Virus record (IMG/VR): IMGVR_UViG_3300035093_000027 | Source of the DNA: an uncultured virus (IMG/VR IMGVR_UViG_3300035093_000027) | Taxonomy: Duplodnaviria > Heunggongvirae > Uroviricota > Caudoviricetes | DNA: 64,000 nt | Reading direction: 5' to 3' (one strand) | In this document: positions 2 to 57,122 of the stretch, piece after piece | How positions within the stretch are numbered: position 1 is the stretch's first letter | Layout of the letters: every line of letters starts with the position of its first letter | The notes under the pieces: generated by a model | The model's input: the letters and a program-made list of their open reading frames with translations, nothing else | Told to the model about the DNA's origin: nothing | Databases searched by the model: none | Program-made: the position numbers and the translations under genes

Positions 2-559
2 GTCACCGAGAACCCGCGTCGTCGTCGGAAGACTCGGCGTCGTCGGAACCCCGACGAGGTCGTGGCGACGAAGAAGGCCGCTGCCGTGGAGAACCCGCGT
101 CGTCGTCGCAAGAAGTCGCGTCGTCGCAACCCGGACGAGGTCGAGACCGCGGTCGAGAACCCGCGCCGTCGCAAGCGTCGTCGTCGGAACCCCGACGAGG
201 TCGCAGCTGCTCCGAAGGCGAAGGCCAAGACCGTCGCCGAGAACCCGCGCCGCCGCCGCAAGAAGTCGCGACGCCGGAATCCCGATGAGGTCGAGACGAA
301 GACGGCGGCCGAGAACCCGCGTCGTCGTCGGAAGACTCGGCGTCGTCGGAACCCCGACGAGGTGGACAGCACGCCCGCTCGAGCTCCGCGTGTCGACGCG
401 AGCTACCGCGTGGCGAACCCGCGTGGCGAAGACAACGACTACGCCGACCGGTGGGTGAACCCCGGCGTGGAAGATCCGGCCGAGCGCATGCGCCTCGAGC
501 AGCTCAAGAAGAACCCGGAGATGCAGCGCCGGGTCGGCAATCGCATCGGCAACCTCTGA
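2..559 (+). CDS. 5'-truncated protamine-like, Arg-rich repeat protein (ENPRRRR..RRRNPDEV x5)
   Basis: Frame is open from position 2 (VTENPRRRRKTRRRRNPDEV...). Five copies of the unit; ends NPEMQRRVGNRIGNL*. Confidence 0.8.
   Translation, partial: VTENPRRRRKTRRRRNPDEVVATKKAAAVENPRRRRKKSRRRNPDEVETAVENPRRRKRRRRNPDEVAAAPKAKAKTVAENPRRRRKKSRRRNPDEVETKTAAENPRRRRKTRRRRNPDEVDSTPARAPRVDASYRVANPRGEDNDYADRWVNPGVEDPAERMRLEQLKKNPEMQRRVGNRIGNL
6..363 (+). repeat. Coding direct repeats of the ENPRRRR-x-RRRNPDEV unit
   Basis: 6..60 is identical to 309..363 (55 bp); three more diverged copies lie between them. Confidence 0.9.
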
Positions 560-569
560 GCAGCACCAC

Positions 570-2126
570 ATGGCACGGGCAACTCGAACTCGTTCACGCA
601 AGCGCCGACGCGCCCGCTTCAATCCCACGTCTCGCGAAGTCGCGACGTGGGCAGGAGCGGTCGCAGCGGCCGGTCTCGTCGGCTACGGCGCGTACCGTCT
701 GCGCAAGCGCAGCAAGAAAAAGTTCGAGTTGCCCGAACCACCACAAGGCACGGGCGAGCCCACACCAATCGGGTGCGAGCTCGGGCCGGCCTATCCCGGA
801 TTCATCCTGGACTCCAGCGGAGCATGCGTGCCGACATCGGACACGCCGCCCGGAATCTACGTCGACTCCATGTGCACGGACTTCGCGTACGTCCCCGGTG
901 ACGACGGACCGCAGCCACGAGAGTTCGACAAGCTGATCTGGAATCTAGTCGCCGCGACCCGCGACCCGCGGATGCGCAGCGCCGATCCCACGTACAACGT
1001 CACCAACTTCTTGCGCTCGTACTGGCCGGACTGCACGTGGCCGCCTGTCGGCGGAACGCCACGGCTGCAGCAACTATTCAACGTGCTGTCGCTGCTGATC
1101 GGAAAAGAGGTCGTCCATCGCGGCGGCCACGTCCTGGGCACCGGCGATCTCGACACGGTCGACGAGCAGGTCGCCGCACGGCTCGCGGCTCTCGGCATGC
1201 CGGAGTTCGATCCGGACGTCGTGCCCGAGATCGAGTTGCCCAAGTACGAGGAGGACGAAGGCCTCGGCGAGGAGCAGCCACCTGGTCCGCCCGGTCCGGG
1301 CCCCGACGTCAACGAGCCCGAGCAGCCCGGAGGCGGCGTCGATCTGCCGCCCGGTGGCCAAGGCTTCCCCAGCGACGATCCGGTAGAGCCCGTGATCGTC
1401 TATCCCGTCGATCTCGAAGGAGCGCTCAGGGATTGCCAGAAGATCCCGTGGTCACCGCCCGCGAAGCACAAGATCGCGATGGAGGACGCGCGGTGGACCG
1501 GACCGAGCACTCACGACTTCTTGCTGTTCGACTTCGACATCGGAGACAACGCGGAGTGCGTCGCGTACAACGTGCGATTCGGACTGTGTCTTCGCACGAC
1601 AGAGATCAACATCTACGGTGAGTATCACGCTGGCGTCCCCATCGCGGGCGTACATCTGCGCAACGCTGACGGCACCCCGGTGAACTGGGAAAGCCTGCAG
1701 CAACCGGCGCTGTGGAAGCGTCAATACAAGACCCGCGTCGGTCTTGCGAACGGCAAGGCCGTGTTCGATGCGCCGACGCCGATCAGCGATCCGGGCGTCG
1801 ATCCATGCCCCGATGACGCGACGGCTTGGCCAAGCGCGCCGGCCTCTGGCTTCATCGTGGACGTTCCGCCCTTGGGCGAGTTCTCGCCCATGAATCTGCC
1901 GTGGATGCCACGACCTCGAGTCGAACTCGTTGCCAAGAACCGCAAGGTCTACGTACGTCTGTTCTACAGCGGGATGCCGAAGTTTCTGCTCGGCGTGAAG
2001 GACACGAAGTGGGGCGGAGTGAAGGTCCCTGATGTGTGGGTCGGCGAGTACGTCGCCAACCGTTTCCAGGACACCGCGTTCAAGGGCGACTTCAAAATGT
2101 GGTCGCTTGGCACCCTGCCCGCGTAG
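570..2126 (+). CDS. Membrane-anchored protein (basic N-terminus, NP, one TM helix, Pro-rich linker)
   Basis: RSRKRRRARFNP, then hydrophobic WAGAVAAAGLVGYGAY; 518-aa ORF packed between its neighbours. Confidence 0.75.
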   Translation: MARATRTRSRKRRRARFNPTSREVATWAGAVAAAGLVGYGAYRLRKRSKKKFELPEPPQGTGEPTPIGCELGPAYPGFILDSSGACVPTSDTPPGIYVDSMCTDFAYVPGDDGPQPREFDKLIWNLVAATRDPRMRSADPTYNVTNFLRSYWPDCTWPPVGGTPRLQQLFNVLSLLIGKEVVHRGGHVLGTGDLDTVDEQVAARLAALGMPEFDPDVVPEIELPKYEEDEGLGEEQPPGPPGPGPDVNEPEQPGGGVDLPPGGQGFPSDDPVEPVIVYPVDLEGALRDCQKIPWSPPAKHKIAMEDARWTGPSTHDFLLFDFDIGDNAECVAYNVRFGLCLRTTEINIYGEYHAGVPIAGVHLRNADGTPVNWESLQQPALWKRQYKTRVGLANGKAVFDAPTPISDPGVDPCPDDATAWPSAPASGFIVDVPPLGEFSPMNLPWMPRPRVELVAKNRKVYVRLFYSGMPKFLLGVKDTKWGGVKVPDVWVGEYVANRFQDTAFKGDFKMWSLGTLPA

Positions 2127-2136
2127 GAGATCCATC

Positions 2137-2871
2137 ATGGCTGAAACGATCATCGAAGCACTCGTTCGTGACCACAACGCCGTGATGCGCGATGTCGCCG
2201 CGGTGCGCTCCAACCCGCGGCTGGCGGCGCGCTTGTATCCCGGGATCGCCGATGCGATCCGGCGTCACAGCGCCGCAGAGGAGGCGACCTTCTACCAGGC
2301 GCTGCGCCGGATCTCTGGACTCGACGCGCGCACGGTTTCGTCGCTCGAGGCGGGGCACAAGCAGATCGCGACGATCCTGGCCGCGCTCGATCGCACGCCC
2401 TACGGCACGCCGCTGTTCGCGGCTGGCTTCCTGCAGATGTCGCAGTTGCTCGCCGCGCACGTGAACTACGAGGAGGACGTCGTGTTCCCTCGCGCATCGC
2501 GGGAGTTGCCGATAACTCGGCAGTACGCGCTGGCGCGTCGCTACAAGCAGCGCATGGGTGCCACTCGAGCCAAGAACGTCTCGATGGTGAACCCGCGTGA
2601 GGCCAACTGCGCGTGCAAGAACCCGTGTGCGTGCGCCTCGTGCAGCACGAAGACCAATCCGAAGATCCGTCGTCGGCCGCGCTGGTATCACCACTTCGCG
2701 GGCATGGGCGCGCCGCTGCTCGATATGCTCACGGTGAAGATCCCGCAGGTGAACGCGACTCCGGGTCTGAAGAAGGACGTGCTCATGTGGCCGAGCCCGT
2801 ACACGGCGCCCATCCATCGCCACGGATCGTACTCGACCACGATCGCGGGTCGCGGCCCGACGTACGGCTGA
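2137..2871 (+). CDS. Hemerythrin-like (HHE) domain protein with Cys-rich, NP-containing tail
   Basis: DH...RHSAAEEATFY...H...HVNYEEDVVFP pattern; RBS AGGAGA before ATG 2137; tail NPREANCACKNPCACASCSTKTNPKIRRR. Confidence 0.8.
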   Translation: MAETIIEALVRDHNAVMRDVAAVRSNPRLAARLYPGIADAIRRHSAAEEATFYQALRRISGLDARTVSSLEAGHKQIATILAALDRTPYGTPLFAAGFLQMSQLLAAHVNYEEDVVFPRASRELPITRQYALARRYKQRMGATRAKNVSMVNPREANCACKNPCACASCSTKTNPKIRRRPRWYHHFAGMGAPLLDMLTVKIPQVNATPGLKKDVLMWPSPYTAPIHRHGSYSTTIAGRGPTYG

Positions 2872-2873
2872 GG

Positions 2874-3053
2874 ATGCCGGCGTCGCCACAAGAGGACTGG
2901 CAGCGAACCGCCAACGCGGTCGGCCTCGGTCTCGGCCTCGCGAGCGTGGGATTCTCCGTCTCGCAGGTGACCAAGCGCCCCGAGGTCGCGCTGGCGGGGA
3001 TCGTGCTCGGCTCGATCCTGACTGCGGCCATGTGGAGACGACGCGAGCGATGA
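2874..3053 (+). CDS. Small two-TM membrane protein
   Basis: AVGLGLGLASVGFSV and VALAGIVLGSILTAAMW; stop overlaps the next ATG (ATGA). Confidence 0.7.
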   Translation: MPASPQEDWQRTANAVGLGLGLASVGFSVSQVTKRPEVALAGIVLGSILTAAMWRRRER

Positions 3054-3775
3054 AGCGTCGTCGCAATCTCGATCGCCGCGTCAGCGACGCTCTGACGCGA
3101 GCACGGAGATCGGCCGCCTCGAATCCGGACATGGCTCTGGTAGCGATCATCGTGGAGGAGTACACGGTGGGTCCTGACGCCGCCGACCTGCAACGCACGC
3201 CGCCGGGCGAGTACATGGCGCTGTGGGCAGACGACGTGTGGATGAACGGCGACGTGCTGTTCGATGGCGACGAGTACGGCGCCGCCACTGCCCATGAGAT
3301 CCTGAAGGTGGCCGCGATCGATCTGGACGGCGAGCCGAAGTACGGGATGAGGCAACGCAACCCCGCTGCTCGGCGCGAGCGCAACGCGCTGCACGAGATC
3401 CGGGCGCATGCCTCCGACAAGCGCTGGTCGTCGCGGATCCCCGGGGGCACGACTCGAGCACCGGCGTCCTTCGAGCGGCGGACACTGGTCCACGGGTCCA
3501 TGGTCGAGCTCGAGCACACCACCGACCCGCTGATCGCGATGGAAATCGCCATGGACCATTTGGCCACCAACCCCGGCTTCTACCGCGCACTCAATCCCGA
3601 CCCCGACGCGTGCGTACTCGGGCGCTGGGCGTGGGATCGCAGCAGCGCGTCGTGCGGGCCCGGTGCGCCGGCGGCGACGCAGCGGGGCGCGTCAGAAGCC
3701 GCACAGCGGCTCGCGCGGAAGCGCTGGACGCTGCCGCCGCGGCAGCAGCGGATGGCCGCCCGGCTTCTTCGGTAG
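3050..3775 (+). CDS. DUF5661-like domain protein, NP-delimited
   Basis: GSMVELEHTTDPLIAMEIAMDHLATNPGFYRAL matches the phage DUF5661 pattern (VExEHTxD..IAxEIAxDHL.E.P.YY). Confidence 0.75.
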   Translation: MKRRRNLDRRVSDALTRARRSAASNPDMALVAIIVEEYTVGPDAADLQRTPPGEYMALWADDVWMNGDVLFDGDEYGAATAHEILKVAAIDLDGEPKYGMRQRNPAARRERNALHEIRAHASDKRWSSRIPGGTTRAPASFERRTLVHGSMVELEHTTDPLIAMEIAMDHLATNPGFYRALNPDPDACVLGRWAWDRSSASCGPGAPAATQRGASEAAQRLARKRWTLPPRQQRMAARLLR

Positions 3776-3786
3776 CTGGTAGGGTC
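3776..3786 (+). promoter_or_regulatory. Conserved promoter motif CTGGTAGGGT (extended -10), copy 1
   Basis: Intergenic; followed by GGAGG and ATG 3804. Confidence 0.65.
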
Positions 3787-3803
3787 GCGCGCGGAGGTCG
3801 TCC

Positions 3804-4295
3804 ATGATCCGAGTCGTCTCAGGTCGAGCAGAGATCCGCGGCCGCGTCACGTTTCCACTGCAGGTGGACAATCTGACGGGATTCCCCGGCCAGGCGGACT
3901 CCACCGACGGTGCGATCTGCTGGACGATTATCAAGTACGACGGCGTCATCGAGTGCTGCAGCTACCCGGGCGAGATGTTCCCGGTGTGCTTGTACGTCTC
4001 GCTGTGGCCGCCGGTGGAGCCCAACCCGCCCGTCGGTCCCAACGGAGAGGCGCTCACCGGAACGCGAGCGCAGCGCAACACCCTGTCGACCGATCGCGTC
4101 GTCGGCCGCAGTGCGCCGACGTCTCGCTCGACGAGCACGCCTCGTTCCGTGTCGGGGCCCACCAGCCAGGGCCGACTGCAGCCTGTGACCGAAACGCTCG
4201 TGCTGCTGGGCGGTGGCACGTCGTCGAATCGGATCGGCGGCGGCAATCGCAACGTGGCCTCGCATGGCTTCGTCGTCATCACGCCCTCGCGCTGA
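3804..4295 (+). CDS. Hypothetical protein (candidate virion protein)
   Basis: GGAGG RBS, promoter motif upstream, beta-rich N-terminal half with vicinal Cys. Confidence 0.6.
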   Translation: MIRVVSGRAEIRGRVTFPLQVDNLTGFPGQADSTDGAICWTIIKYDGVIECCSYPGEMFPVCLYVSLWPPVEPNPPVGPNGEALTGTRAQRNTLSTDRVVGRSAPTSRSTSTPRSVSGPTSQGRLQPVTETLVLLGGGTSSNRIGGGNRNVASHGFVVITPSR

Positions 4296-4308
4296 AAGAA
4301 GAACCGCC

Positions 4309-4764
4309 GTGAAGTTCGTCGCGATCAACAAGCGAGACCAGAACGAAGCATGGTTCGATCCGTGGTCGGTCGTGCACGGCGCGACCGGGCTCGCGTTCGG
4401 ACTCACGGGCGTTCCCTTCTGGTGGACGTTCGGCGCAGCGATCGCGTGGGACGTCTTCGAGCAGATGCTCGAGCGCTCGGAAGCGGGCCAGAAGTTCTTT
4501 CGGACGAGCGGGCCGGAGTCTTGGGGAAATGTCGCCTCCGACACGGCACTGTTTCTCGGCGGCTGGTGGCTCGGGCAGAAGTACAACTCGACCGGCCCTG
4601 CCACGAACCCGTACATGCCCAAGCGCAAGCGTCGTCGCGCGAACCCGGTGGTCGTCGCGCCCCCGAACATGACGAGCCCTTCGATGGGCCCGCGCGGCGC
4701 TCGGAAGCGAGCTGGCGCACCTGTGTCGCGTCGTGACGCGGTCGCCGGTACGATCTCATCGTAG
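4309..4764 (+). CDS. DUF2585-like membrane protein with basic NP tail
   Basis: DPWSVVHGATG...WDVFEQ...ESWGNVASDT...GGWW pattern; tail TNPYMPKRKRRRANP. Confidence 0.65.
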   Translation: MKFVAINKRDQNEAWFDPWSVVHGATGLAFGLTGVPFWWTFGAAIAWDVFEQMLERSEAGQKFFRTSGPESWGNVASDTALFLGGWWLGQKYNSTGPATNPYMPKRKRRRANPVVVAPPNMTSPSMGPRGARKRAGAPVSRRDAVAGTISS

Positions 4765-5063
4765 TGGATCTACCGCGCGAGCCTGGGTTCCAGCCGTTGG
4801 TCACCGGCATCCGCGAAGGCGGGCGCTTGGTCGGCCTGGTCGGACACGTGTACCACTACGGTCCGAAGCGCTGGTGGGTGCCCGGTCCGCTCGCGCTGCT
4901 GCTTCCTCCGCAGCGCATCGTGCTCGTCTTCGAGACGCGGATGATCCCGTTGCGTGAGGGATACACCGACGACGAGTACGAGCTCGCCGCCGCAGCCGTG
5001 GCGCTCGTGGCCGAAGAGCGCGCAGCTCTGCTCAACGACCGAGCACGAAGCGTCGGTCCCTGA
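4764..5063 (+). CDS. Hypothetical protein
   Basis: Start overlaps the previous stop; fills the gap. Confidence 0.55.
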   Translation: MDLPREPGFQPLVTGIREGGRLVGLVGHVYHYGPKRWWVPGPLALLLPPQRIVLVFETRMIPLREGYTDDEYELAAAAVALVAEERAALLNDRARSVGP

Positions 5064-5066
5064 CGA

Positions 5067-5249
5067 TCAGCGCGAGCGCCGACGACGTCGCGGGTTCTTG
5101 CGACGCTTGCGCTTGCCGACGACGTAGCCGACCAACCCGCCGACAGTCGCCGCACCGAGCACCACGAGCGCGGCGCCAGCCCTGAACCGTGCGCGCTCGG
5201 TGGGGTTGGCCCACAGCACGACGCCACCCGGTGGAACGCGAGCGCTCAT
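5067..5249 (-). CDS. Small single-TM protein with KRKRRKNPRRRRRSR tail
   Basis: WANP, then TM AALVVLGAATVGGLVGYVVG, then basic NP tail. Confidence 0.7.
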   Translation of the reverse strand: MSARVPPGGVVLWANPTERARFRAGAALVVLGAATVGGLVGYVVGKRKRRKNPRRRRRSR

Positions 5250-5259
5250 GGTCTGCATC

Positions 5260-5925
5260 CTACAACAAGCACGACATGCCTCCGCTTCGCCGCAACGCCG
5301 TGTGCGTGCGTCCGATCTGTCTCAGCATCTTCCACTGCCCCACAAGACCGTCGACGACGCCGGACTTGTCGAGTTTGGTGCGCGTGTCGATCCCCTCGAG
5401 CAGCACGAGCATCGTGGTGCCCTGCTCGCGCTCGACGACGTCGTTCATGGCGGTCTCGATGCAGTAGCCGTTCCAGCACGTCTGCGGCAGCGCCTCGAGC
5501 ACCCAGCGTCGAAGCACGCGCTGTCCAGTCACGAGCGGCCCGCACAACTGCAAGACGTTGATCACGTCGCCACGATCCTGCAGTCCCGCGACCTGGTCGT
5601 AGCCGAGATCGGACGCTTCGATCATCCGACGCACGTGCTGCGGTCGCAGCCCGACGAGGTCGGCGTCGAAGAACGCCACACGATCGTCTCCCTCGGGCAA
5701 CGACTCGTACGCGAACAGCATCGCTCCGCCCTTGCCGAGGTTGCGGGGCGTCCGGATCGCGACGGCCCCGGCCGCCTCGGCGCGCGCGGCCGTGTCGTCG
5801 GTGCTCCCGTCGTCGACGACGACGACGTCCTCGAAGCACCCGGCGTCCCGGAGCGCCCGGACGACGCCAGCCACGCTGGGCGCCTCGTTGTGCGCCGGAA
5901 CGACCGCATACAGGCTTTGCCTCAC
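5260..5925 (-). CDS. Glycosyltransferase family 2 (GT-A)
   Basis: VVPAHNEA, VVVVDDGSTDDT, NLGKGGA, FFDADL motifs. Confidence 0.9.
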   Translation of the reverse strand: MRQSLYAVVPAHNEAPSVAGVVRALRDAGCFEDVVVVDDGSTDDTAARAEAAGAVAIRTPRNLGKGGAMLFAYESLPEGDDRVAFFDADLVGLRPQHVRRMIEASDLGYDQVAGLQDRGDVINVLQLCGPLVTGQRVLRRWVLEALPQTCWNGYCIETAMNDVVEREQGTTMLVLLEGIDTRTKLDKSGVVDGLVGQWKMLRQIGRTHTALRRSGGMSCLL

Positions 5926-5975
5926 GATGAGGCTCCAGCCGCCAGAAGCGGTACCGCGCGTAAGCCACGCGCCAG
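5915..5975 (-). ncRNA. Candidate compact omegaRNA scaffold overlapping the tnpB 3' end
   Basis: Three consecutive minus-strand hairpins: GCGCGT-GGCTT-ACGCGC, CCGC-TTCTG-GCGG, GCCTCA-TCG-TGAGGC. Confidence 0.4.
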
Positions 5976-7052
5976 AACGTTGAGAGCCGCGTTGTGATCC
6001 CTACCCAGCACCAGCCCGCACTCGCACCGATGGACTCGATCTCCGAGTCCCTTCGGGACGGTGCGTCCGCATGTCGAGCAGTCCTGCGTCGTGCCTCGGG
6101 GGTCGATCGCGATCACGTGCACGCCAGCTTCTTCCGCTTTGCTGTGCAGGATCGAGATGAACTGAGCCCAGCCGACGTCGTGAACGGACTTGGCGAGCAT
6201 GCCGCTCGCCAGTCCGCGGACGTTCAGATCTTCGTGCGCGATGAGGTCGAACCGTTCGACCAGCGCCTTAGCCGTCTTGCGATGGAAGTCGATCCGCTGG
6301 TTGCGGACGCGCTCGTGCGCGCGAGCAACACGCTGCCGCGCGCGGCGACGGGAGTTCGACCCACGCTTCTTCGCAGAGAGTGCTCGCTGAGCGCGAGCGA
6401 GCGACTCCTGTCCGCGTCGGTAGAAACGCGGGTTGGCGATCTCTTCTCCATCGGAGAGGACTGCGAACGTCGTGAGACCAAGGTCGACGCCCGTCGTGCG
6501 ACCAGCTCGGACCGCGCGCTTCGCAGGTGCATCACCGATGTCGCACACGATGACGACAAACCATCTCCCACGCGCGTCCCGGGTGATCGACACGTCCCTG
6601 ACGACACCCTCCATGAGACGGTGCTGCTTGAAACGAACATGACCGATCTTCGGCACGCGAACGTACCCGCTGCCGCCCTCGCGCTCAGCGGGTTCGACAG
6701 TGACTCGCCCGATCCCGAAGGTGTCGTAGCGGTGGACCGATCGGAACCGTGGGAAGCCAGGCTTCTCTCCGCGCTTGCACCGACGGAAGAACGCCTCGAA
6801 CGTATTGTCTAGACGTCGAAGGGCTGAACGATGCACATCAACCGGCGAAGCAGACCAGTCGGACTCCATCCTAAGGTCGGTCAGTTGCCGAAGCTGATCG
6901 AAGCACCTGAGGCTCTGCTTGCGGGAGCGCCACGCCTTGATCCGTTGCTCAAGTCCAGCGTTGTAAAGCGTACAACACTGGGAGCACCATACGCTGAACG
7001 CCTCACGGTGAGCCGCGAGCGGACGAAGCGGGAACCGGTACGTCCGTAGCAC
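5922..7052 (-). CDS. tnpB: RNA-guided endonuclease TnpB (solo; no tnpA seen)
   Basis: RTYRFPL, LYNAGL, GFPRFRS, RuvC GVDLG / HEDLNVRGL / RDHNAALNV, Zn-finger CSTC..CEC. All three catalytic acidic residues are present. Confidence 0.95.
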   Translation of the reverse strand: MLRTYRFPLRPLAAHREAFSVWCSQCCTLYNAGLEQRIKAWRSRKQSLRCFDQLRQLTDLRMESDWSASPVDVHRSALRRLDNTFEAFFRRCKRGEKPGFPRFRSVHRYDTFGIGRVTVEPAEREGGSGYVRVPKIGHVRFKQHRLMEGVVRDVSITRDARGRWFVVIVCDIGDAPAKRAVRAGRTTGVDLGLTTFAVLSDGEEIANPRFYRRGQESLARAQRALSAKKRGSNSRRRARQRVARAHERVRNQRIDFHRKTAKALVERFDLIAHEDLNVRGLASGMLAKSVHDVGWAQFISILHSKAEEAGVHVIAIDPRGTTQDCSTCGRTVPKGLGDRVHRCECGLVLGRDHNAALNVLARGLRAVPLLAAGASS

Positions 7053-7059
7053 CCCCAGA

Positions 7060-7087
7060 ATGCTATCCCAGGCGGATTTTCACACAA
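7060..7087 (-). promoter_or_regulatory. Putative leaderless sigma70-type promoter of tnpB
   Basis: TTGTGT-N16-TAGCAT, 7 nt before the GTG start. Confidence 0.45.
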
Positions 7088-7108
7088 GACCGGGCGCCCT
7101 CCGACGAT

Positions 7109-7118
7109 CTGGTAGGCT
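7109..7118 (+). promoter_or_regulatory. Variant promoter motif CTGGTAGGCT
   Basis: One mismatch to the conserved motif; upstream of GAGG and ATG 7141. Confidence 0.55.
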
Positions 7119-7140
7119 CTACGAAGAGAGGTCAACGCCC

Positions 7141-7518
7141 ATGACGGAGCTCGCCGACTACCGCGGCCATCGCCTCGCGTCCAAGCGCCCCATGAACCGG
7201 GCCGCGCTCGCGCAGCAGAACCCCGTCAGCGTCGTCGGCGGAGGCGCGACGGTCGGCGGAGGCGCAGGCACTGGATCCGGCGTTTCGCAGTCGCCTGGCC
7301 AAGGGCAGCAGCGGTTCTACTACTACAACAACTACCAGCCCTGGTACTGGCCGTCGTACAACAACTGGTACGGCTACTACCCGTGGTGGCAGGGCTTCAA
7401 CTACGGATGGCCCGTGGGCTACGGCTTCAACTCGCCGGTGTACTGGCCGCAGTGGCCGCAGCAGTGGTGGCCCGGACCGTACGCCTACGCGCCGCGCCGC
7501 GTCGTCGCAGTCACGTAG
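7141..7518 (+). CDS. Leader-NP protein with Tyr/Trp/Pro/Asn/Gln low-complexity domain
   Basis: SKRPMNRAALAQQNP, then a Gly-rich linker and YYYNNYQPWYWPSYNNWYGYYPWW... Confidence 0.75.
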   Translation: MTELADYRGHRLASKRPMNRAALAQQNPVSVVGGGATVGGGAGTGSGVSQSPGQGQQRFYYYNNYQPWYWPSYNNWYGYYPWWQGFNYGWPVGYGFNSPVYWPQWPQQWWPGPYAYAPRRVVAVT

Positions 7519-7565
7519 CACGAGAAGCAGCCGAGGGCGCGAAGCCCAAGAAGAGGTGAACGACG

Positions 7566-7925
7566 ATGCGACTTCGACCCAAGCGACCCATCCTCCGTGC
7601 CCAGCTCGCGGCGCAGCAGAACCCGACGGGCTACACGACCGAGCCGACTGGATCGATCTGGTGTTGTCGGGTCGATGAGAACTGGAACTGCGAGAAGTAC
7701 TGCTACAACTTCGCCGGTGCTCCGGCTCCGGGCGGTCGCGCTCCGTCGCAGGGCCTCGGTCTCGCTGCACAAACCGGCCGAACGCATGCAACGATCTCGT
7801 GCCCACCGGGAACGCACGTCGCTGGATCTTCGCCACACGAGTACTGCGCGGACAACGGAAGCGGAGGAACATCGCTCCTCGGATGGCAGGCTACCGGACC
7901 GTACGGTACGACGCCCGGAGGCTGA
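7566..7925 (+). CDS. Leader-NP small Cys-rich protein
   Basis: AGAGGTG RBS; MRLRPKRPILRAQLAAQQNP leader, then six Cys. Confidence 0.75.
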   Translation: MRLRPKRPILRAQLAAQQNPTGYTTEPTGSIWCCRVDENWNCEKYCYNFAGAPAPGGRAPSQGLGLAAQTGRTHATISCPPGTHVAGSSPHEYCADNGSGGTSLLGWQATGPYGTTPGG

Positions 7926-7926
7926 G

Positions 7927-8178
7927 CTACGTAGGGGACGCTGCGGCCTGCGCGACGATCTCGGTCGACGACTGGCTTCGCGCTGGCGCGAGATCGCGTG
8001 CTTCGACCTCGGCGATCAGATCGATGAGCGCGGCCCGTCGACTCTTGAAACCCTCGCGGCGCATGCAGTGACCGGCGATCGTCGACTCGACCATCCCCTT
8101 CGTCTGCTTCCATCCCCAGCGCTTGGTGCGATCGTACCGGTTGAACGAGATCGCAAATCCATCGGGCTGCTGCTTCAT
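7927..8178 (-). CDS. Hypothetical protein
   Basis: GGGAG RBS; convergent with the previous gene. Confidence 0.5.
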   Translation of the reverse strand: MKQQPDGFAISFNRYDRTKRWGWKQTKGMVESTIAGHCMRREGFKSRRAALIDLIAEVEARDLAPARSQSSTEIVAQAAASPT

Positions 8179-11816: not shown

Positions 11817-12641
11817 ATGTTCACGCAGGACCACGGTCGCGACCTCGACGCGCTGCTCGGCATGACCGATCCAATCGCGCTCGTGCGCTTCGGCGACGGA
11901 GAGATCGCTCTCATCGACGGCAACGTCCACAAGTCCGCCGACGCATGGCGGACCACGGGTCCCTCGTGGATCCGCGGCGATCTGGTGACGTCGCTGCGGC
12001 ATGCCGCCGACGGCTGGTGCATCGGACTTCCCACGCCGTGCTGCCTGCGCTCCGGGATCCGGATCCATCCGGCCGTGCGTGTGCCTGCGCCGCAGCGCAC
12101 CTTCGCGACGCTGTTCCTGCACTCCAACCTGCACCGGATCCACGACGTGCTCGAGCGCTTCTCGAGCGCCATCATCGTCGGATCGTGGTTCGGCGACGTC
12201 CGGATCCCCGAAGATGGCGTGAGCAAGTCGTGGGACATCGACGCGTGCGTCGACGAGATCATCCGGGCCGATCGCGACGTCCTGCTCGCCGCGGGCCCCT
12301 GCGCCAACGTGATCGCGATGAAGTACTGGGAGCGCGTGCCGGCCGAGGCGCGCCACTTCGTGCTCGATGTCGGATCGGCGCTCGACGTGCACCACGGCAA
12401 GCTGACCCGGCACTTCCACGACACGATGCTCGACCACCGATGCGTCTGGTCGACCGTGCGTGACGCACCAGGACGGCCCGCAGGACGTGTCGAGCGCCAG
12501 CGGACCGTCGTGCGACCGTACACGCCGCCCGAGCCCGTCGATCCCATCACGGCAGCGCCGGCCAAGCCGAAGATCCAAGAGCGCGGGCGCGTGCGCGCCG
12601 AGCCGCTGGGCAAGACCACGAAGATCGGAAAGAGACCATGA
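11817..12641 (+). CDS. GT-D fold (DUF1792-like) glycosyltransferase
   Basis: LVRFGDGEIALIDG, LAAGPCANVIA, LDVGSALD. Confidence 0.75.
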   Translation: MFTQDHGRDLDALLGMTDPIALVRFGDGEIALIDGNVHKSADAWRTTGPSWIRGDLVTSLRHAADGWCIGLPTPCCLRSGIRIHPAVRVPAPQRTFATLFLHSNLHRIHDVLERFSSAIIVGSWFGDVRIPEDGVSKSWDIDACVDEIIRADRDVLLAAGPCANVIAMKYWERVPAEARHFVLDVGSALDVHHGKLTRHFHDTMLDHRCVWSTVRDAPGRPAGRVERQRTVVRPYTPPEPVDPITAAPAKPKIQERGRVRAEPLGKTTKIGKRP

Positions 12642-13582
12642 GCGCTCGCTTCAAGCCCTCAGCAACGACCATCCGATCTCGCGGTGCATCCGCGCCGATC
12701 CAGGTGGTCGACACCAATGTCCCGCGCGCCGTCGGCGACGCGCCGACGATCCTGACCCGAGGCCGTCGGCGAGGCTTCGCCGCGACCGTGACGACGCCCG
12801 TCGCCAAGACCGTGAAGGCCGAGGCCCTACTGGGCCACGCCGCGATCCGGCAGCGTGAGCATCGTCAGTCGGGCAAAGACGACGACGTCAACGTCGTCGA
12901 TCCGAACAAGGTGCGCGGCGAGGCGATCGCGGTCGTGGTCAGCAAGCGACCCGGGATGGCCGCGTACGTCGGTCGCATGCTCGCGTGGCAGAGCCTGCGT
13001 CCCACGCACGTCGTCGTCTGCTCGTCGGTGCGCGACTACGACACCAAGCCCATCGAGGAGGCGCTGCCGGGGATCCCGGTCGTGTTCGTACGCGCCGATG
13101 GGGCTGCCAGCCTCGGCGAGCTCCGCAACTCGGCGATGCAGGTGGCGAGCTCGCTGTCGGACAAGGCGATCATGTGCACGATCGACGACGACGACTGCTA
13201 CGGCGTGCACTACCTCGCCGGGATCATGCACGCGTGGCACCGCCACCCGATCGCGCTGGTAGTCGGCCTCGGCTCGTTCGAGACTCGCAGCGTCGACGGC
13301 CCGCCCGCGGGTCCACTGACGCAGCGCTACCGCGTGCGCTCGGGTCTGCGTGCGCCGATCAGCGGCGCGACGATCTCGATTCCGGTCCGGGTGTGGAAGG
13401 AGCGCCACGACCTGCGGTACGCCGCAATCGGTTGCGGCGAGGACATCGAGTTCCTCAAGCGCGTGCAGGCCGAGAACCGGGTCGCCGCGGCGGCGTTCGG
13501 CGACTTCGTCGCGCTGCGCTATACCGACCCCGCGCACGCGCACACGTCCGTCAACCGCGGGATCCCGGGAGTCGCCCCTTGA
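12638..13582 (+). CDS. Glycosyltransferase family 2
   Basis: SLGELRN, TIDDDDCYGVHYL, GEDIEF. Confidence 0.8.
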   Translation: MSARFKPSATTIRSRGASAPIQVVDTNVPRAVGDAPTILTRGRRRGFAATVTTPVAKTVKAEALLGHAAIRQREHRQSGKDDDVNVVDPNKVRGEAIAVVVSKRPGMAAYVGRMLAWQSLRPTHVVVCSSVRDYDTKPIEEALPGIPVVFVRADGAASLGELRNSAMQVASSLSDKAIMCTIDDDDCYGVHYLAGIMHAWHRHPIALVVGLGSFETRSVDGPPAGPLTQRYRVRSGLRAPISGATISIPVRVWKERHDLRYAAIGCGEDIEFLKRVQAENRVAAAAFGDFVALRYTDPAHAHTSVNRGIPGVAP

Positions 13583-14457
13583 AACGCAAGCTGCGCCGCG
13601 CCTCCGGACGCCCGATCGTCGTCGACAATCGGACTCCGGGGCTTCAGCTCACGCCCGTACGCTCCCAGGCGCAGGCCGGACCGCGCGTCCCGGCTCCGCC
13701 CGCAATCGCACGGATGGCGAGCTCGGAGGCACAACGCGCGCTGGTGAGCGATCTCGTGCAGTACGTCTCGGACCACCCCGTCGCGCGCGACCAGCCGCTG
13801 GTCGCAGTCGTGGTGCCCGTGCTGCGGCGACCCCACCGGGTCGCACCGCTCGTGCAGTCGTTTCGGGCGACGACCGACCCGAGCGAGGCGCGGCTGTACT
13901 TCGTGGCGCAGGCCAGCGACATGGCGGAGATCGACGCGATCCGCTCGGCCGGCCTCGAGCCCATCATCGTCGGCGACGTCGACCAGAGCTGGGCGCGCAA
14001 GATCAACCGCGGCTACGAGCGCACCACCGAGCCATGGATCCTGCTCGCGGCCGACGACCTGCGGTTCCACCCGCGCTGGCTCGATGAGGTGCGCGCGATG
14101 CTCCTGACGTTCCAAGGCGTGATCGGCACCAACGATCTCGGCAGCCCCGACACCGCCAACGGCAACCGGTCGACGCACCCGTTCGTGAACCGCGCGTACG
14201 CGGCGATCTGCGGCACAGCCGACGAGCGCAACAAGATCTGCCACGAGGGCTACCACCACAACTTCCCCGACACCGAGCTCGTCATGACCGCGAAGGCTCG
14301 CGGCATGTTCCGTCATAGCCCGCGCTGTTGCCTCGAGCACCTGCACCCGTTGTGGGGCAAGGCGCCGCACGACGAGATCTACAAGCTCGGCATGAGCCGC
14401 TGGTACGAGGATCAGGCGCTCTTCTACCGCCGCGTCGCGGCGCACGGATTTCAGTGA
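13579..14457 (+). CDS. Glycosyltransferase family 2
   Basis: VAVVVPVLRRP, KINRGY, LLAADDL, HNFPDTEL, EHLHP; TTG start overlaps the previous stop. Confidence 0.8.
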   Translation: MKRKLRRASGRPIVVDNRTPGLQLTPVRSQAQAGPRVPAPPAIARMASSEAQRALVSDLVQYVSDHPVARDQPLVAVVVPVLRRPHRVAPLVQSFRATTDPSEARLYFVAQASDMAEIDAIRSAGLEPIIVGDVDQSWARKINRGYERTTEPWILLAADDLRFHPRWLDEVRAMLLTFQGVIGTNDLGSPDTANGNRSTHPFVNRAYAAICGTADERNKICHEGYHHNFPDTELVMTAKARGMFRHSPRCCLEHLHPLWGKAPHDEIYKLGMSRWYEDQALFYRRVAAHGFQ

Positions 14458-15149
14458 TGGGCGTCAAGTTTCTCAACCAGGGCAATGCACGAGGCTCGAG
14501 CGTGCCGGCCACCCCCAACGTCGGATCGCGCGCGCTGTACGCGCCGAGGATGCGGATCGCCGCGCAGGCGCCCGACACGAAGATCTTGCTGTCGGTGCTC
14601 GTGCCCACCGTGCCGGGCCGCGAGCACAAACTCGCCAAACTGCTCGCCGTGCTCGACTCGCAGATCGCCGCGCGCTCCGACGTTGAGCTGCTCGTGCTCC
14701 GCGACAACCGAAGCATGACGATCGGCGAGAAGCGCAACCGGATGCTAGCGATCTCCCGCGGCGCGTACGTGGCGTTCGTCGACGACGACGACGAGGTCAT
14801 GTCCGACTACGTCAGCTCGATTGCGCCGCGGCTCGCCGAGTCGCCAGACGTACTGTGCTTCGACGTGGTGGTCCACGGGCACGGTGCGCCCAAGACCTGC
14901 TACTACAGCCTGGCGATGAGCGACCAGAACCTGCCCGATCGCTACCATCGCAAGCCGAACCACCTCATGGTGTGGCGCCGCGAGCTCGCGGTGGCGTGTC
15001 CGTTCCCCTCGGTCAAGACCGGAGAGGACACGGCGTGGGCCAACCAGATCTGCTCACGCGCGACCAAAGAGATCCACGTGCCGCGCACGCTCTACAGCTA
15101 CAACTACGACCCAGCGGACAACTCCGCGACGCCGCGCCCAGCGAAGTGA
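14457..15149 (+). CDS. Glycosyltransferase family 2
   Basis: LSVLVPTVPGR, IGEKRN, YVAFVDDDD, GEDTAW. Confidence 0.85.
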   Translation: MGVKFLNQGNARGSSVPATPNVGSRALYAPRMRIAAQAPDTKILLSVLVPTVPGREHKLAKLLAVLDSQIAARSDVELLVLRDNRSMTIGEKRNRMLAISRGAYVAFVDDDDEVMSDYVSSIAPRLAESPDVLCFDVVVHGHGAPKTCYYSLAMSDQNLPDRYHRKPNHLMVWRRELAVACPFPSVKTGEDTAWANQICSRATKEIHVPRTLYSYNYDPADNSATPRPAK

Positions 15150-15159
15150 GGGATCGTCC

Positions 15160-16413
15160 ATGATCACGAGATCCGAGTGCCGCCTGTGCGGCAAGGCCAT
15201 GACCGACGTCCTTAGCCTCGGCGACATTGTGCCCGTCGACTTCATCGCGCCTGGCGCAGACGTGCGACCCGCTTTGCCGCTGACGCTCGCGCAGTGTGGC
15301 GAGTGCAGCCTCGTGCAGTTGCGGCACATGTTCGATCGCGACAGCCTGTTCCGCCAGTACTGGTACCTGAGCGGCCTGAATCCGACGATGGTCGATGCCC
15401 TGCGCGACGTCGTCGAAGGCGTGAAGGCCCGTGTCGCGCTCGAGGCCGGAGACGTCGTCGTCGACATCGGCGCCAACGACGGGACGCTGCTCGACCTGTA
15501 CGACGAGTCGCTGCACAAGATCGGCTTCGATCCCGCGCTCAACCTCGAGCAGAGCGCGAAGGCGTCGTGCGACCTGTTCGTGAACGACTACTTCGAGACG
15601 TCCGATGTCGATCTGCCGCCGGCCAAGGTGATCACGAGCATTGCGATGTTCTACGACCTCGACGATCCACGCGCGTTCCTGCGGCGCATCGTCACGTCAC
15701 TGCGCAAGGACGGGATCTGGGTCATGCAGATGACCGACCTGGTCAGGATGCTGCGCGCCAACGCGTTCGACAACATTTGCCACGAGCACGTCTGCTACTA
15801 CTCGCTCGCGGTCTTCGCCAACCTCGTGGCCGAGTACGGCCTGCGCGTGTTCGATGTCGAGTTCAACGATGTCAACGGCGCGAGCGTGCGCGCGTACATC
15901 GGGTGGAACGGCGCCCACGAGGTCAACTCGCGCGTCGCGGCCGCACTCGCCGACGAGGCGGCGTACCTGTGCGAGGACGACGCCATCGTGGCGTTCGCGG
16001 AGCGCGTCCGCACTGGCAAGGAGAGTCTGCTGCGGTTTCTCCGGTCCGAGCTCGCCGCCGGCAAGGTGTTCCACGCGATGGGCGCGAGCACGAAGGGCAA
16101 CACGCTGTTGCAGTTCTACGGACTGTCGCGCGCGCAGATCCACGTGGCCGCCGAGGTGAGCCCCGCGAAGTTCGGCCTCCTGATGGCTGGATGCGACGTG
16201 CCCATCGTGCCGCAGGAGGAGTCGCTCGCCCGGCGCCCCGATTACTACCTGGTGCTGCCCTGGCACTTCATCGACTTCCTCGCGCGCAAGCACGAGGGAT
16301 ACATGGCCGAGGGCGGTGCGCTCATCGTGCCCTTGCCCGCGCCGGCGCAGTACACCCGCGACGGTGCGCAGACGGCGGTGCGCCTGCTCGGCTCCAACTT
16401 GGGAGACGGCTGA
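15160..16413 (+). CDS. NDP-hexose C-methyltransferase (Zn-binding, Methyltransf_13/14 type)
   Basis: CRLCG, LAQCGECSLVQL, VDIGANDG, NICHEHVCYYS, GASTKGNTLL, PDYYLVLPWHF. Confidence 0.92.
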   Translation: MITRSECRLCGKAMTDVLSLGDIVPVDFIAPGADVRPALPLTLAQCGECSLVQLRHMFDRDSLFRQYWYLSGLNPTMVDALRDVVEGVKARVALEAGDVVVDIGANDGTLLDLYDESLHKIGFDPALNLEQSAKASCDLFVNDYFETSDVDLPPAKVITSIAMFYDLDDPRAFLRRIVTSLRKDGIWVMQMTDLVRMLRANAFDNICHEHVCYYSLAVFANLVAEYGLRVFDVEFNDVNGASVRAYIGWNGAHEVNSRVAAALADEAAYLCEDDAIVAFAERVRTGKESLLRFLRSELAAGKVFHAMGASTKGNTLLQFYGLSRAQIHVAAEVSPAKFGLLMAGCDVPIVPQEESLARRPDYYLVLPWHFIDFLARKHEGYMAEGGALIVPLPAPAQYTRDGAQTAVRLLGSNLGDG

Positions 16414-20182: not shown

Positions 20183-20185
20183 CCA

Positions 20186-27533: not shown

Positions 27534-27535
27534 AT

Positions 27536-27610: not shown

Positions 27611-27626
27611 CCGCAGGAGGATCGTG

Positions 27627-42027: not shown

Positions 42028-42028
42028 C

Positions 42029-53598: not shown

Positions 53599-53608
53599 AA
53601 TGCCGCCC

Positions 53609-55349: not shown

Positions 55350-55353
55350 GCGG

Positions 55354-55563
55354 ATGAGCGCCGCTGATCGTGGCCTGCTCGATGCGCTCGTCGGATGGTG
55401 GGATCTGGTGGCGCGCTCATGGCCGATGCACGACGCGGCCTGTTGGCAATGGCTCGTAGACGAGGGCTACGTCGCGTTCGCGCCCGAGAACCGGATCTAC
55501 CCGCTGCCCCGCGGGATCAGCTTCATCCACCGCAGCAACGCTCGTCTCAGCAAGGATCCATGA
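55354..55563 (+). CDS. Small hypothetical protein
   Basis: Coupled to the next gene. Confidence 0.5.
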   Translation: MSAADRGLLDALVGWWDLVARSWPMHDAACWQWLVDEGYVAFAPENRIYPLPRGISFIHRSNARLSKDP

Positions 55564-55797
55564 TGCCCACGCTCGACATCGACCATCTCTTCACATACCA
55601 ACCGCCCACCGCCGAGCAGAAGGATCACTACGACACGCTCACGGCGTTGTTCAAGCAACTCGGCCACGCGATCCAGTTGCACTGTCCCGACTCCGCCGAG
55701 CGCCGAGCGGATGCTCGCGATCCGCAAGCTGCAGGAGTCCAAGCTGTGGGCGAACACCGCGATCGCAGTGACGGGCGCGGTTAAGCCGAACGCCTAA
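55560..55797 (+). pseudogene. Acb2/Tad1-like helical-hairpin protein frameshifted by a 7-bp tandem duplication
   Basis: FTYQPPTAEQ..Y...CPDSAER | MLAIRKLQESKLWANTAIA are in different frames; GCCGAGC is duplicated at 55695-55708. Confidence 0.75.
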
Positions 55798-55932
55798 GGA
55801 CGCCTCGCTCGCGCTCGAGGCTCTGTACAAGCAACTCGGCCACGCGATCCAGGAGATGGTGACGCCGAGCGCACACGCGCAGATCTGGGCACGGGCACCG
55901 GTTTTCGAGGTGGAGATCCGCTCGCTGGGCAT

Positions 55933-55945
55933 GCTGGTAGGGTCC
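55933..55945 (+). promoter_or_regulatory. Conserved promoter motif GCTGGTAGGGTCC
   Basis: TAGGGT ends 9 nt before ATG 55953. Confidence 0.75.
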
Positions 55946-55952
55946 ACGAACC

Positions 55953-57122
55953 ATGCTTCGGATCCGGCCCAAGCGACCCATCTTGCGCGCTCAGCTTGCC
56001 GCACAACTTAACGGTGGGACTGCTCGGCGCATGAGCAATCCAGCCGAAACGGTAGACATGCCGGCCAGAACTGGGCCGCTGCCGCAAGACTGGTGGACCA
56101 GCAACTTCCACCCCGATCCGCCGATGTGGGGATCCGAACCCACGAACGAGCCTTGGGTGCAGGTCGTCAACACGCCCGAGACGAGCTCGGGTGACGGTGT
56201 CGTCTTCGATCCTCAACGTCCCCAACAGCGCGGCATGATCGTGAAGGTCATCGATGTCTGGACGGCCTTCGGCGACACGCAGATGGCCACCGTGGATGTT
56301 CCGTCGGGAGCGGGAGACGGCTGGCCGCGACAGGGCGTACCTGCGGGCGACGTGGAGAAGTTCTGGGTGGCGGCATCGCAGTCGGCAACTAGGCCGTCAA
56401 ACAGCAGTTGGCGATGGGTGCAGATCACGAAGACCCCAGGTTTCGGACCGACGATCGACGGTCAGTCCACCGAGCGAGGGCGAGGTATTCTCTTCCAGCA
56501 GAGAGCATCTGGGCCGGTGAAGCAGGTCGGATCCGTCATCGTGTATCAGATGGCGCATGATCCTTCGGGGATGCGCGCGTCCGTCTCGAGGCTGGAGTCT
56601 GTACCGACGGGAGTCACAGCCGATCGCAAACCCGTGTGCACGGAATCGCTGGCGCTGTACGAGAACCGCTACAGCGTCTCTGGCTGGCCTGAAGAGCACC
56701 GGAACAAGCGGTATCTGTGCGGCGTGCCTGAGCCTACCAAGGACTATCAGTACTGCGGGCAAGGCGACAGATTCTCGCTGCCTTCGCTGATCTCCAACCC
56801 CGATGAGGATCCTCCGTTCCCGCCCGCAGGCCAAGGAACTAAGCGCTACTGCGGAAAGCTGGTGGAACTTCCGAAGGGCAAGTGGTACGCAGCCACGTTC
56901 TTCGATCACGCCCCTTCGCCGAAGTCGTTCATGTGGGTGAGGATCATCGACGTTCCACCCGACTACGACGGGAAGCACTTCGGACGGGGTGAGCTGTACA
57001 AGCGAAGCCGTTTTGGTGGTTCGATCAGCCGGAAGGAAGTTCTCATCGCGGAGATCGATCCTGGCGCATCGCCGCGAACTCGTATCGTGCCGAACGACAA
57101 TCCTTGGTCTGCGGGCGAGTGA
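55953..57122 (+). CDS. Leader-NP protein (same leader as 7566..7925)
   Basis: MLRIRPKRPILRAQLAAQ..RRMSNP; further NP motifs internally and near the C-terminus. Confidence 0.8.
   Translation: MLRIRPKRPILRAQLAAQLNGGTARRMSNPAETVDMPARTGPLPQDWWTSNFHPDPPMWGSEPTNEPWVQVVNTPETSSGDGVVFDPQRPQQRGMIVKVIDVWTAFGDTQMATVDVPSGAGDGWPRQGVPAGDVEKFWVAASQSATRPSNSSWRWVQITKTPGFGPTIDGQSTERGRGILFQQRASGPVKQVGSVIVYQMAHDPSGMRASVSRLESVPTGVTADRKPVCTESLALYENRYSVSGWPEEHRNKRYLCGVPEPTKDYQYCGQGDRFSLPSLISNPDEDPPFPPAGQGTKRYCGKLVELPKGKWYAATFFDHAPSPKSFMWVRIIDVPPDYDGKHFGRGELYKRSRFGGSISRKEVLIAEIDPGASPRTRIVPNDNPWSAGE

Follow-up and report, generated by a model that had tools for sequence, protein, structure and literature searches.

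The stretch of DNA analyzed here, a window of 64,000 nucleotides from the uncultured caudoviricete virus IMGVR_UViG_3300035093_000027, encodes proteins in which the dipeptide Asn-Pro (NP) stands next to runs of basic residues. The specific part of this signal is the coupling of NP to a basic run at protein termini and at the joints of modules that are shuffled among homologs; the resulting tag is real, portable and older than any single phage lineage. The explanation that we tentatively favor is that the NP-capped polybasic tags and linkers are portable handles that bind a polyanion, probably DNA, and sort proteins into virions.

The G+C content of the window is 65-68% throughout and, because six-frame open reading frames (ORFs) are misleading at such values, genes were called with a self-trained codon model. 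This procedure yielded 85 genes; in the revised set of 86, the starts at 3050 and 55953 proposed in an earlier, sequence-only reading of this DNA were adopted and the minus-strand ORF 5067-5249 was added. That reading had pointed to NP beside basic residues in about 12 proteins, and the motifs are present at all 12 places it cited (its '5249' is ORF 5067-5249). The enrichment over a shuffled background that it called for is clear: the 86 proteins contain 71 NP against 32.6 expected, 23 basic-flanked NP (at least three Arg or Lys within six residues on one side) against 2.11, and 8 brackets (NP, 2-14 amino acids (aa) with at least three basic residues, NP) against 0.098. None of 1000 shuffles reached any of the three observed values, and local shuffling in blocks of 10 or 20 residues had the same outcome. 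When the repeat protein encoded at 2-559 is left out, the respective figures are 58 against 31.3, 13 against 1.32 and 3 against 0.041. Among the 400 dipeptides, NP is the second most over-represented in the 85-gene set (68 vs 33.0 expected, z 6.1), and its scarcity in the glycan enzymes, previously noticed by eye, is borne out by the counts for the 11-gene block (1 NP vs 3.85 expected, P = 0.10).

A DNA-level explanation of the NP signal was considered and ruled out, given that AACCC is enriched in the coding frame only and the codons vary. Of the 96 AACCC/GGGTT words, 56 encode Asn-Pro in frame, every one of the eight synonymous hexamers is in use, and the DNA coding for the shared tails described below is only ~62% alike.

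The plain excess of NP is ordinary, with about half of it or more being background, because three other high-GC phages show a 1.2-1.7-fold excess as well (Mx8, 1.55; phiC31, 1.68; 50 kb of Skog, 1.20), and it probably reflects a helix-cap preference in Asn-poor proteomes. Asn accounts for only 2.6% of the window proteome, Asp being 2.4 times commoner, and residues +1 to +3 after NP are enriched in Asp, Glu and Arg, in a cap-like manner. These features are what would be expected if the motif had no common function, that is, if NP merely represented the helix N-cap or turn used most often in an Asn-poor proteome, basic runs were frequent in Arg-rich, high-GC phage proteins and beside transmembrane helices, and the coincidences had been picked by eye. 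Basic-flanked NP also exceeds expectation in Mx8 (4 vs 0.9), phiC31 (2 vs 0.7) and Skog (2 vs 1.0). However, chance association does not produce the brackets, with or without the repeat protein, as the shuffles demonstrate. The location of NP within proteins is uneven, too. Across the 84 window proteins that are complete, the two terminal stretches of 30 residues together contain 26 NP against 8.2 expected (3.15-fold), whereas the interior contains 32 against 23.8 (1.35-fold, close to the background of the other phages); the termini of the relative L001 show 2.9-fold and 5.0-fold excesses, the latter in the C-terminal 30 aa, whereas the terminal excess is absent from Skog and phiC31 (0.4-0.5-fold).

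The tag takes three forms: (a) linkers of the type NP-[RK]n-NP that connect small modules open to exchange, (b) leaders of the type M-[basic]-NP at the N-terminus, and (c) C-terminal NP-[basic] tails, which in the window are mostly an NP-capped amphipathic basic helix and in other phages an NP-polyArg end. Apart from the module proteins and the peptidase, the tagged sites in the window, several of them next to transmembrane (TM) helices, are the following.

2-355 (+): Arg-rich repeat region of the 5'-truncated ORF 2-559, five NP-[RK]8-10-NP brackets with acidic or neutral spacers (DEV...VE)
512-556 (+): C-terminal tail NPEMQRRVGNRIGNL of ORF 2-559, loosely resembling the tail of the 22984, 24897 and 25979 proteins (not significant with the tail profile)
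570-626 (+): basic N-terminal leader MARATRTRSRKRRRARFNP, then a TM helix, of a 518-aa protein
2590-2679 (+): cluster of three NP (VNP, KNP, TNPKIRRRP) within a Cys-rich stretch after the hemerythrin domain of gene 2137-2871
3050-3127 (+): basic N-terminal leader MKRRRNLDRRVSDALTRARRSAASNP of the DUF5661 protein 3050-3775
4606-4647 (+): bracket NPYMPKRKRRRANP after the TM helices of gene 4309-4764
5070-5120 (-): C-terminal tag VGKRKRRKNPRRRRRSR of the small TM ORF 5067-5249
7566-7625 (+): N-terminal leader MRLRPKRPILRAQLAAQQNP, which recurs at 55953-56042 (84% identity, 19 aa, E 1.7e-11) and more weakly at 7141-7224
55953-56042 (+): second copy of this leader, MLRIRPKRPILRAQLAAQLNGGTARRMSNP

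In ORF 2-559, the unit E-NP-R3-4K..R3-4-NP-DEV occurs five times, and the 185-aa product contains 13 NP and has a net charge of +34. Tandem Repeats Finder detects no DNA repeat in this ORF, so the repeat is kept at the protein level; a homolog (P0014, 63% identity, 127 aa) contains three R7-8 units, with all eight NP aligned. The leaders of the 7141, 7566 and 55953 proteins end in QQNP or ..NP; at the DNA level, the likeness does not extend beyond the coding leader, and some of the changes within it are synonymous. The DUF5661 protein contains ASNP, RQRNP (within RQRNPAARRER at 3347-3385), TNP and LNP, and has the C-terminus RMAARLLR. The 60-aa product of ORF 5067-5249 (-), the codon score of which (5.7-7.5) lies just below the gene-call threshold of 8, consists of ANP, a TM helix and then GKRKRRKNPRRRRRSR; together with the 570 and 4309 proteins, it represents the tags that flank TM helices in the window. 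A homolog search with the 55953 protein returned only the protein itself, no relatives of the 570 and 22984 proteins were found in IMG/VR, and the phage collection searched holds no DNA similar to window positions 1-8000.

Tags at termini and joints are also present in the three genes 22984-24747, 24897-25982 and 25979-26911.

22984-23013 (+): N-terminal MTGRIRATNP of gene 22984-24747, with NPQARRE kept in 7 of the 8 homologs that have this end
24229-24261 (+): module joint PWE-NP-RRRH-NP of the same gene, with NP in 9 of 9 homologs
24679-24744 (+): C-terminal KNPRKKNP bracket and tail SPRATTMTRRLGRL of the same gene (tail profile E 3.8e-6, aa 570-587)
25914-25979 (+): tail GQLAMF-NP-SARSSAMLRRLTRL of the peptidase gene 24897-25982
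26510-26548 (+): joint MA-NP-DDDFDDEDD between the two modules of gene 25979-26911
26855-26908 (+): C-terminal tail ATNPGARATKLARRVGSL of the same gene (tail profile E 1.4e-4, aa 292-310)

The 22984 and 25979 proteins each consist of two modules, none with an assigned activity, that are found in other combinations among homologs. The 22984 protein's N-terminal domain (~420 aa) ends in PWE-NP, and the residues P-W-E-N-P (P416-P420) are invariant in 7 of 7 close homologs. Downstream of this joint, the homologs have different modules, each introduced by NP or basic-NP, so that the joint NP is conserved while its flanks change, which argues against a motif without function. The downstream module of the window protein matches Gordonia phage Skog gene 167 over aa 432-563 and keeps the basic-NP even as a stand-alone protein (MPRLQSRRRNP-LQFAKVNE in P0010, NPRRRHNP-LQFAKVNE in the window). 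In four homologs (P0003, P0005, P0007 and P0008), the second module of the 25979 protein is fused to a 22984-type N-terminal domain, again behind NP.

At their very C-termini, the adjacent genes 22984, 24897 and 25979 share the tail NP-x2-R-x5-RR[LV]xxL. A profile hidden Markov model of the tail built from non-window sequences matches the three window proteins with E-values of 4e-6 to 1.4e-4 and misses ORF 2-559, so that three proteins, not four, are counted as sharing it. Two AlphaFold2 (AF2) models were made, for the 24897 and 22984 proteins, and in both NP directly precedes the tail helix (N346-P347 with helix 347-360, and N572-P573 with helix 575-586, respectively), in each case at low confidence. 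The 22984 model is poor overall (predicted local distance difference test score (pLDDT) 56.9); a fold search with it returned only generic helical-bundle rows (Z at most 6.3), and it has no match above 0.78 in the Atlas. The joint 419-426 lies in a stretch of pLDDT 22-35, and the model suggests that it is probably flexible and accessible.

The junctions of these genes show a further regularity. Genes 22984, 24744 and 24897 end in the identical nine bases AGGCTGTGA (Arg-Leu-stop; 24739-24747, 24888-24896 and 25974-25982, all +), with the GTG inside serving as the start of the next gene after 22984 and 24897, whereas after 24744 the next start is just past the stop. These junctions resemble repeated cassettes, as though a single long gene had been split.

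The domain-boundary claim of the sequence-only reading stands for termini and shuffled joints, but the NP at aa 26 of the 2137 protein (Pfam hemerythrin match, aa 4-120) and the TNP within the DUF5661 match lie inside domains. NP as a boundary-marking motif survives as a portable tag, with the reservation that the helices in the AF2 models start at Pro or two residues later, as with an ordinary N-cap. The proteins were also described as unrelated, but several of them share leaders or tails.

A scan of IMG/VR for DNA encoding NP-RRRR-NP identified 26 loci, 6 of which are coding-like in frame, whereas the control DP-RRRR-DP yielded at least 119 loci, with only 1 of the 80 examined being coding-like, although Asp is the commoner residue. 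One case is a 397-aa protein in an unrelated 109.5-kb contig (L132:7781-8971, -), where all 9 NP are located in four brackets and a C-terminal NP-RRRRSKRRAR and separate about five modules. In another, 58.6-kb contig, two proteins (from loci L142 and L152) share the first module followed by NP-RRRR-NP and then differ in their modules. Across five NP-RRRR-NP loci, 10 of the 100 called proteins have a C-terminal NP-polyArg, among them endolysin-like and M23/endolysin-like proteins, and two NUDIX proteins have the ending NPRH.FA. In these other phages, NP is preceded by Ser, Ala, Thr, Arg or Tyr. These five loci and the window have no common homologs at E<=1e-4. A scan for ENPRRRR-encoding DNA gave mostly out-of-frame noise, with few of the 80 loci coding. 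Given the brackets, the conserved joints, the contrast with Asp-Pro and the arrangement of the L132 protein, the absence of a common function is largely refuted for the basic-flanked class and appears decidedly improbable as an account of the motif as a whole.

Two side observations concern the same kinds of proteins. At least 8 genes near the L132 bracket protein (L132:3047-13646, -) end in a hydrophobic helix followed by Arg/Lys and are, judging from this arrangement, predicted tail-anchored membrane proteins; the small window proteins 2874-3053, 24744-24896 and 31262-31504 are similar to them. In a 140-kb viral contig, an 827-aa ORF (L024:1926-4406, -; G+C at third codon positions (GC3) 0.78) shows an extreme Arg/Lys content over several hundred residues, followed by Gly/Ala/Gln-rich repeats.

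Under the explanation that we favor, Asn-Pro would act as a helix stop or start (an Asx-Pro turn or N-cap) that sets the basic stretch apart from the folded module so that it stays exposed. In this state, the polycation could bind a polyanion, with phage DNA as the favored partner and an anionic membrane as the alternative for tags adjacent to TM helices, and the tagged proteins would thereby concentrate on the genome, enter the capsid and reach the next host. The window's tagged set, namely the DUF5661 protein, the modules of 22984 and 25979, the Arg-repeat protein and the zincin-like peptidase, might represent a disaggregated polyvalent-protein system. The notion of an exposed polycationic handle is based on the position at termini and joints, the low-confidence setting in the models and the helices that start at or near Pro. 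The lysin-like, M23-like and NUDIX proteins that bear the tag in other phages are typical injected cargo.

Several points weigh against these handles. The positive-inside rule alone explains the basic run of the tags next to TM helices (570, 4309, 5249 and L132). That the residues are so strictly Asn-Pro, and not just some helix breaker, points to an enzyme or a partner that recognizes them specifically, which a purely electrostatic handle does not need. Proteins that stop at NP without a basic run after it (3 of 84 in the window, 4 of 149 among the peptidase homologs) do not fit a basic tag. Finally, our gene calls are home-made, so that the N-terminal NP positions depend on the choice of starts.

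A protease encoded elsewhere on the element had been suggested as something to look for, and the window indeed encodes a candidate.

24897-25982 (+): stand-alone zincin-like metallopeptidase, HEFGH at aa 192-196 (nt 25470-25484) and EEHF with Glu 290

This gene encodes a predicted HExxH zinc peptidase with a fold resembling those of anthrax lethal factor and the Pro-Pro endopeptidases (PPEPs), and it is of the zincin-like hub peptidase type of polyvalent proteins (PMC5512222). An exhaustive search found 468 relatives, with HEFGHRYW and EEHFCEAFA as common motifs. In all 58 homologs aligned, H192, E193 and H196 are unchanged, and so is E290 (EEHFCE) at the position of the third zinc ligand; in the model, the first three lie within helix 184-203 and E290 within helix 288-300. 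The model is of high quality (pLDDT 91.3) and contains an extra N-terminal helical bundle (aa 1-100). Its best fold match (VIA-align) is anthrax lethal factor (Z 10.7, root-mean-square deviation 5.7, 201 aligned residues), followed by the lethal factor-like domain of Certhrax (Z 9.4), PPEP-3 (9.3), PPEP-2 (9.1) and other zinc peptidases (8.4-8.8); Foldseek gave weak matches (best E 0.013), yet nearly all of the top rows are zincins. At the sequence level, the window peptidase has no Pfam match even at E 0.5 and no PHROG match, and a profile search against PDB sequences places it outside significant similarity to the M34 family (lethal factor, E 0.35; ATLF-like, E 0.59), whereas a giant homolog (P0119) matches ATLF at 9.8e-7 over 34 residues. 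The peptidase domain occurs inside proteins of up to 3524 aa among the best 150 of the 468 matches, and 12 of the 16 large homologs scanned carry Pfam domains such as Topoisom_I, PolyA_pol, DUF5661, HAD_SAK_1 and 2_5_RNA_ligase2, as well as inteins.

With such an enzyme at hand, the [basic]-Asn-Pro joints could be its cleavage sites, cut after Pro so that modules are freed from small polyproteins and leaders and tails are trimmed, an interpretation that we regard as possible but on balance unlikely. The catalytic residues are intact and invariant, and substrates of the nearest fold family resemble the motif: the optimal peptide of lethal factor is RRKKVYP|YPME, with four basic residues and a cut after Pro (PMC6226181), and PPEP-1 cuts VNP|PVP (PMC10413326). 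Processing of polyvalent proteins by peptidases of this type was proposed by Iyer (2017), with no linker motif or cleavage site named in the accessible part of the text (PMC5512222). Moreover, the peptidase and both of its neighbors carry the same NP tail, close homologs of the peptidase keep GPKGQ[MIL][SA]MF-NP, and the joints lie in low-confidence, probably accessible stretches.

The excess of proteins that end exactly in NP can also be counted in favor of cleavage. In the window, 3 of the 84 complete proteins have such an end (0.14 expected, P 4e-4), and the last nine bases of the three genes are identical.

32137-32145 (+): NP-stop gene end AACCCATGA
59320-59328 (-): NP-stop gene end AACCCATGA
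63475-63483 (+): NP-stop gene end AACCCATGA

Likewise, 4 of 149 peptidase homologs end in NP (~0.23 expected); three of these are tail-less and stop at the NP that precedes the tail of the others, and the fourth (P0017) keeps a basic tail before its final NP. In the 149 homologs, NP occurs 187 times against 133 expected and basic-flanked NP 34 times against 12.1. By contrast, the bracket is found only once among these more distant proteins, no peptidase of the 24897 type is encoded within 8 kb of the 26 NP-RRRR-NP loci or within 3 kb on either side of the 80 ENPRRRR loci, and the relative L002 lacks a peptidase gene at the syntenic place, all of which counts against cleavage. The trimming of an extreme C-terminal polyArg tail or of a six-residue leader would also have no obvious purpose. 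When the peptidase domain (aa 1-322) was co-folded with the tail of the same protein (aa 323-361), the score was 0.00 against a mark of 0.32 in a run without controls, a result that counts neither way. If the cleavage interpretation is true, the NP joints would be the first defined site for the peptidases of polyvalent proteins. A broader combination, in which one poly-Arg/Asn-Pro 'zip code' in unrelated high-GC phages loads enzymes (cell-wall hydrolases, NUDIX), small effector modules and the peptidase onto the genome and into the capsid and, in the lineage of the window, the [basic]-Asn-Pro joints are additionally cut after Pro by the lethal factor/PPEP-like peptidase, with ORF 2-559 yielding +8/+9 Arg peptides and separate modules, seems quite unlikely.

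Two features of these genes and of the peptidase family can be recorded here. The NP-stop ends use the rare Pro codon CCA, and in two of them the ATG inside AACCCATGA can start the next gene; CCA is the last codon in 7 of the 19 listed gene ends of the ATGA type. In the peptidase family (P0016-P0165), the heptad [RK]VAxR[YWFH]L, searched as a regular expression, lies no more than 35 residues from one or the other terminus in 24 of 150 members, with a density of 2.29 per 1000 aa at termini against 0.43 inside (P0030 and P0155 are loose matches). From these sequences, the heptad appears to be a movable terminal peptide, and the window tails (..RRLGRL) look like a variant.

Two other kinds of cleavage have to be considered. 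Prohead proteases cut after Glu, following L/I-x-E in T4 and S/A/G-x-E in phiKZ, and an analogy with these systems had been drawn in the sequence-only reading; a cut of the form x-x-E|NP would be consistent with the Glu before the first NP of all five brackets of ORF 2-559 (VTE, AVE, AVE, VAE, AAE) and with PWE-NP in the 22984 protein. The analogy is not supported by the gene content, as no prohead protease family is detected among the 85 window proteins with Pfam and PHROGs, in a window where head genes are not recognizable and which belongs to a contig of at least 130 kb. Furthermore, Glu precedes NP at only 9 of the 71 sites, mostly in ORF 2-559 and PWE-NP, and other phages have different residues there, as described above, which makes this type of processing very improbable. 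Asn-Pro can also break spontaneously through cyclization of Asn, which in principle could provide a slow maturation timer. Self-cleaving Asn-Pro sites include NPTH of FlhB/YscU and N42/P43 of reovirus mu1, and Asn-Pro autoproteolysis of RsgI has reportedly been described in one paper. The known cases need a folded, strained turn, whereas the sites here lie in low-confidence stretches, and the proteins that end in NP keep the Pro, contrary to a cut between Asn and Pro; this possibility can be given almost no weight.

As a whole, the window appears to be a section of a large tailed phage or prophage. Its genes encode a sigma factor, a tyrosine integrase, a pectate-lyase-like tailspike, an M23 peptidase, tail-fiber-like and other virion structural proteins, a block of sugar-modifying enzymes and an IS605-type TnpB, along with two tRNAs. 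Its syntenic relatives are metagenome contigs of 172 kb and 31 kb and a 4.5-kb contig binned with a metagenome-assembled genome of Myxococcales. The glycan block (11817-21258, +) is contiguous and includes a GDP-mannose 4,6-dehydratase, a C-methyltransferase, several family-2 glycosyltransferases, methyltransferases and a NUDIX hydrolase. The TnpB gene (5922-6836, -; OrfB_IS605 and Cas12f1-like TNB domain) adjoins a family-2 glycosyltransferase gene, and its codon score, below that of the neighbors (GC3 0.72), suggests a recent insertion. The genes for tRNA-Arg(TCG) and tRNA-Ile(AAT) are adjacent (27461-27612, +), directly 5' of a PTH2-type peptidyl-tRNA hydrolase gene (27624-27968), and the presence of a phage Arg tRNA alongside the poly-Arg tracts may not be accidental. 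Gene 36149-39121 (-), next to the tailspike, encodes a 990-aa protein with an array of 63-bp (21-aa) tandem repeats at 36593-37755, for which periods of 126 and 189 also scored. The product of 55560-55784 (+) weakly matches the hairpin domain Acb2/Tad1 of anti-CBASS/Thoeris sponges (E 3.2e-4, under the Pfam cut-off) and also matches phrog_1454.

Among the known systems with which the tag can be compared, polycationic DNA condensers, such as protamines, the histone SPKK (S/T-P-K/R-K/R) minor-groove units and the adenovirus core peptides VII and mu, are similar in that the window Arg tracts of 4-10 residues are punctuated by Pro, that the Asx-Pro turn could mimic the Ser-Pro turn of SPKK, and that the ORF 2-559 protein is highly charged. 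In contrast to these condensers, the tract has a fence at either end and forms a linker, or a tag attached to enzymes, instead of a dedicated condensing protein, and Asn rather than Ser/Thr occupies all bracket sites, so that the likeness to SPKK is a structural analogy only. Ordinary helix N-caps resemble the tag in the placement of the helix, at Pro in the 24897 model and two residues later in the 22984 model, and in the Asp and Glu that follow NP; the coupling to a basic run, the double fence, the NP-ending proteins and the contrast with DP are unexplained by a cap. Like the capsid-targeting sequence of T4, the short terminal peptides shared by unrelated proteins could direct these to the head, and Glu before some NP resembles the sites of prohead processing. 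Unlike the T4 and phiKZ signals, the tags are polybasic and NP-fenced, occur internally and at both termini, and are found on membrane proteins as well, in a window where no protease of that type was found.

The M34-type zincins (lethal factor and PPEP-1, -2 and -3) provide the best structural matches of the 24897 model, and their substrates have a basic run, Asn-Pro or both ahead of a cut after Pro; the 24897 protein differs from them in the additional N-terminal bundle and in the absence of a significant sequence match. Another parallel is to the polyvalent proteins of phages and conjugative elements, which, according to Iyer (2017), are injected with the DNA and have a zincin-like peptidase as a hub (PMC5512222). 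The 24897 peptidase shares with them HExxH with a downstream Glu, the zincin fold and the occurrence of its domain within proteins of 1000-3500 aa together with DUF5661, PolyA_pol, topoisomerase IB, HAD_SAK_1 and 2'-5' RNA ligase, and the window has a solo DUF5661 protein and modules that are shuffled among homologs. The differences are that the system of the window is split into small genes and that NP-polybasic tags occur also in loci with no peptidase nearby. Neither the accessible part of Iyer (2017) nor the full-text literature searched describes a polybasic tag fenced by NP or names a site at which the peptidases of polyvalent proteins would cut.

We regard the NP tag as belonging with phage effectors, polyvalent or packaged, that are addressed through their termini and may be processed. 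Polyvalent injected proteins and zincin peptidases are widespread, and their particle addressing and processing sites have so far been undefined; a short recognizable tag beside a candidate protease makes both testable. Such a tag could aid the annotation of cargo proteins in uncultured phages and, if it is a packaging signal, could also be employed, being small, to load phage heads with foreign proteins.

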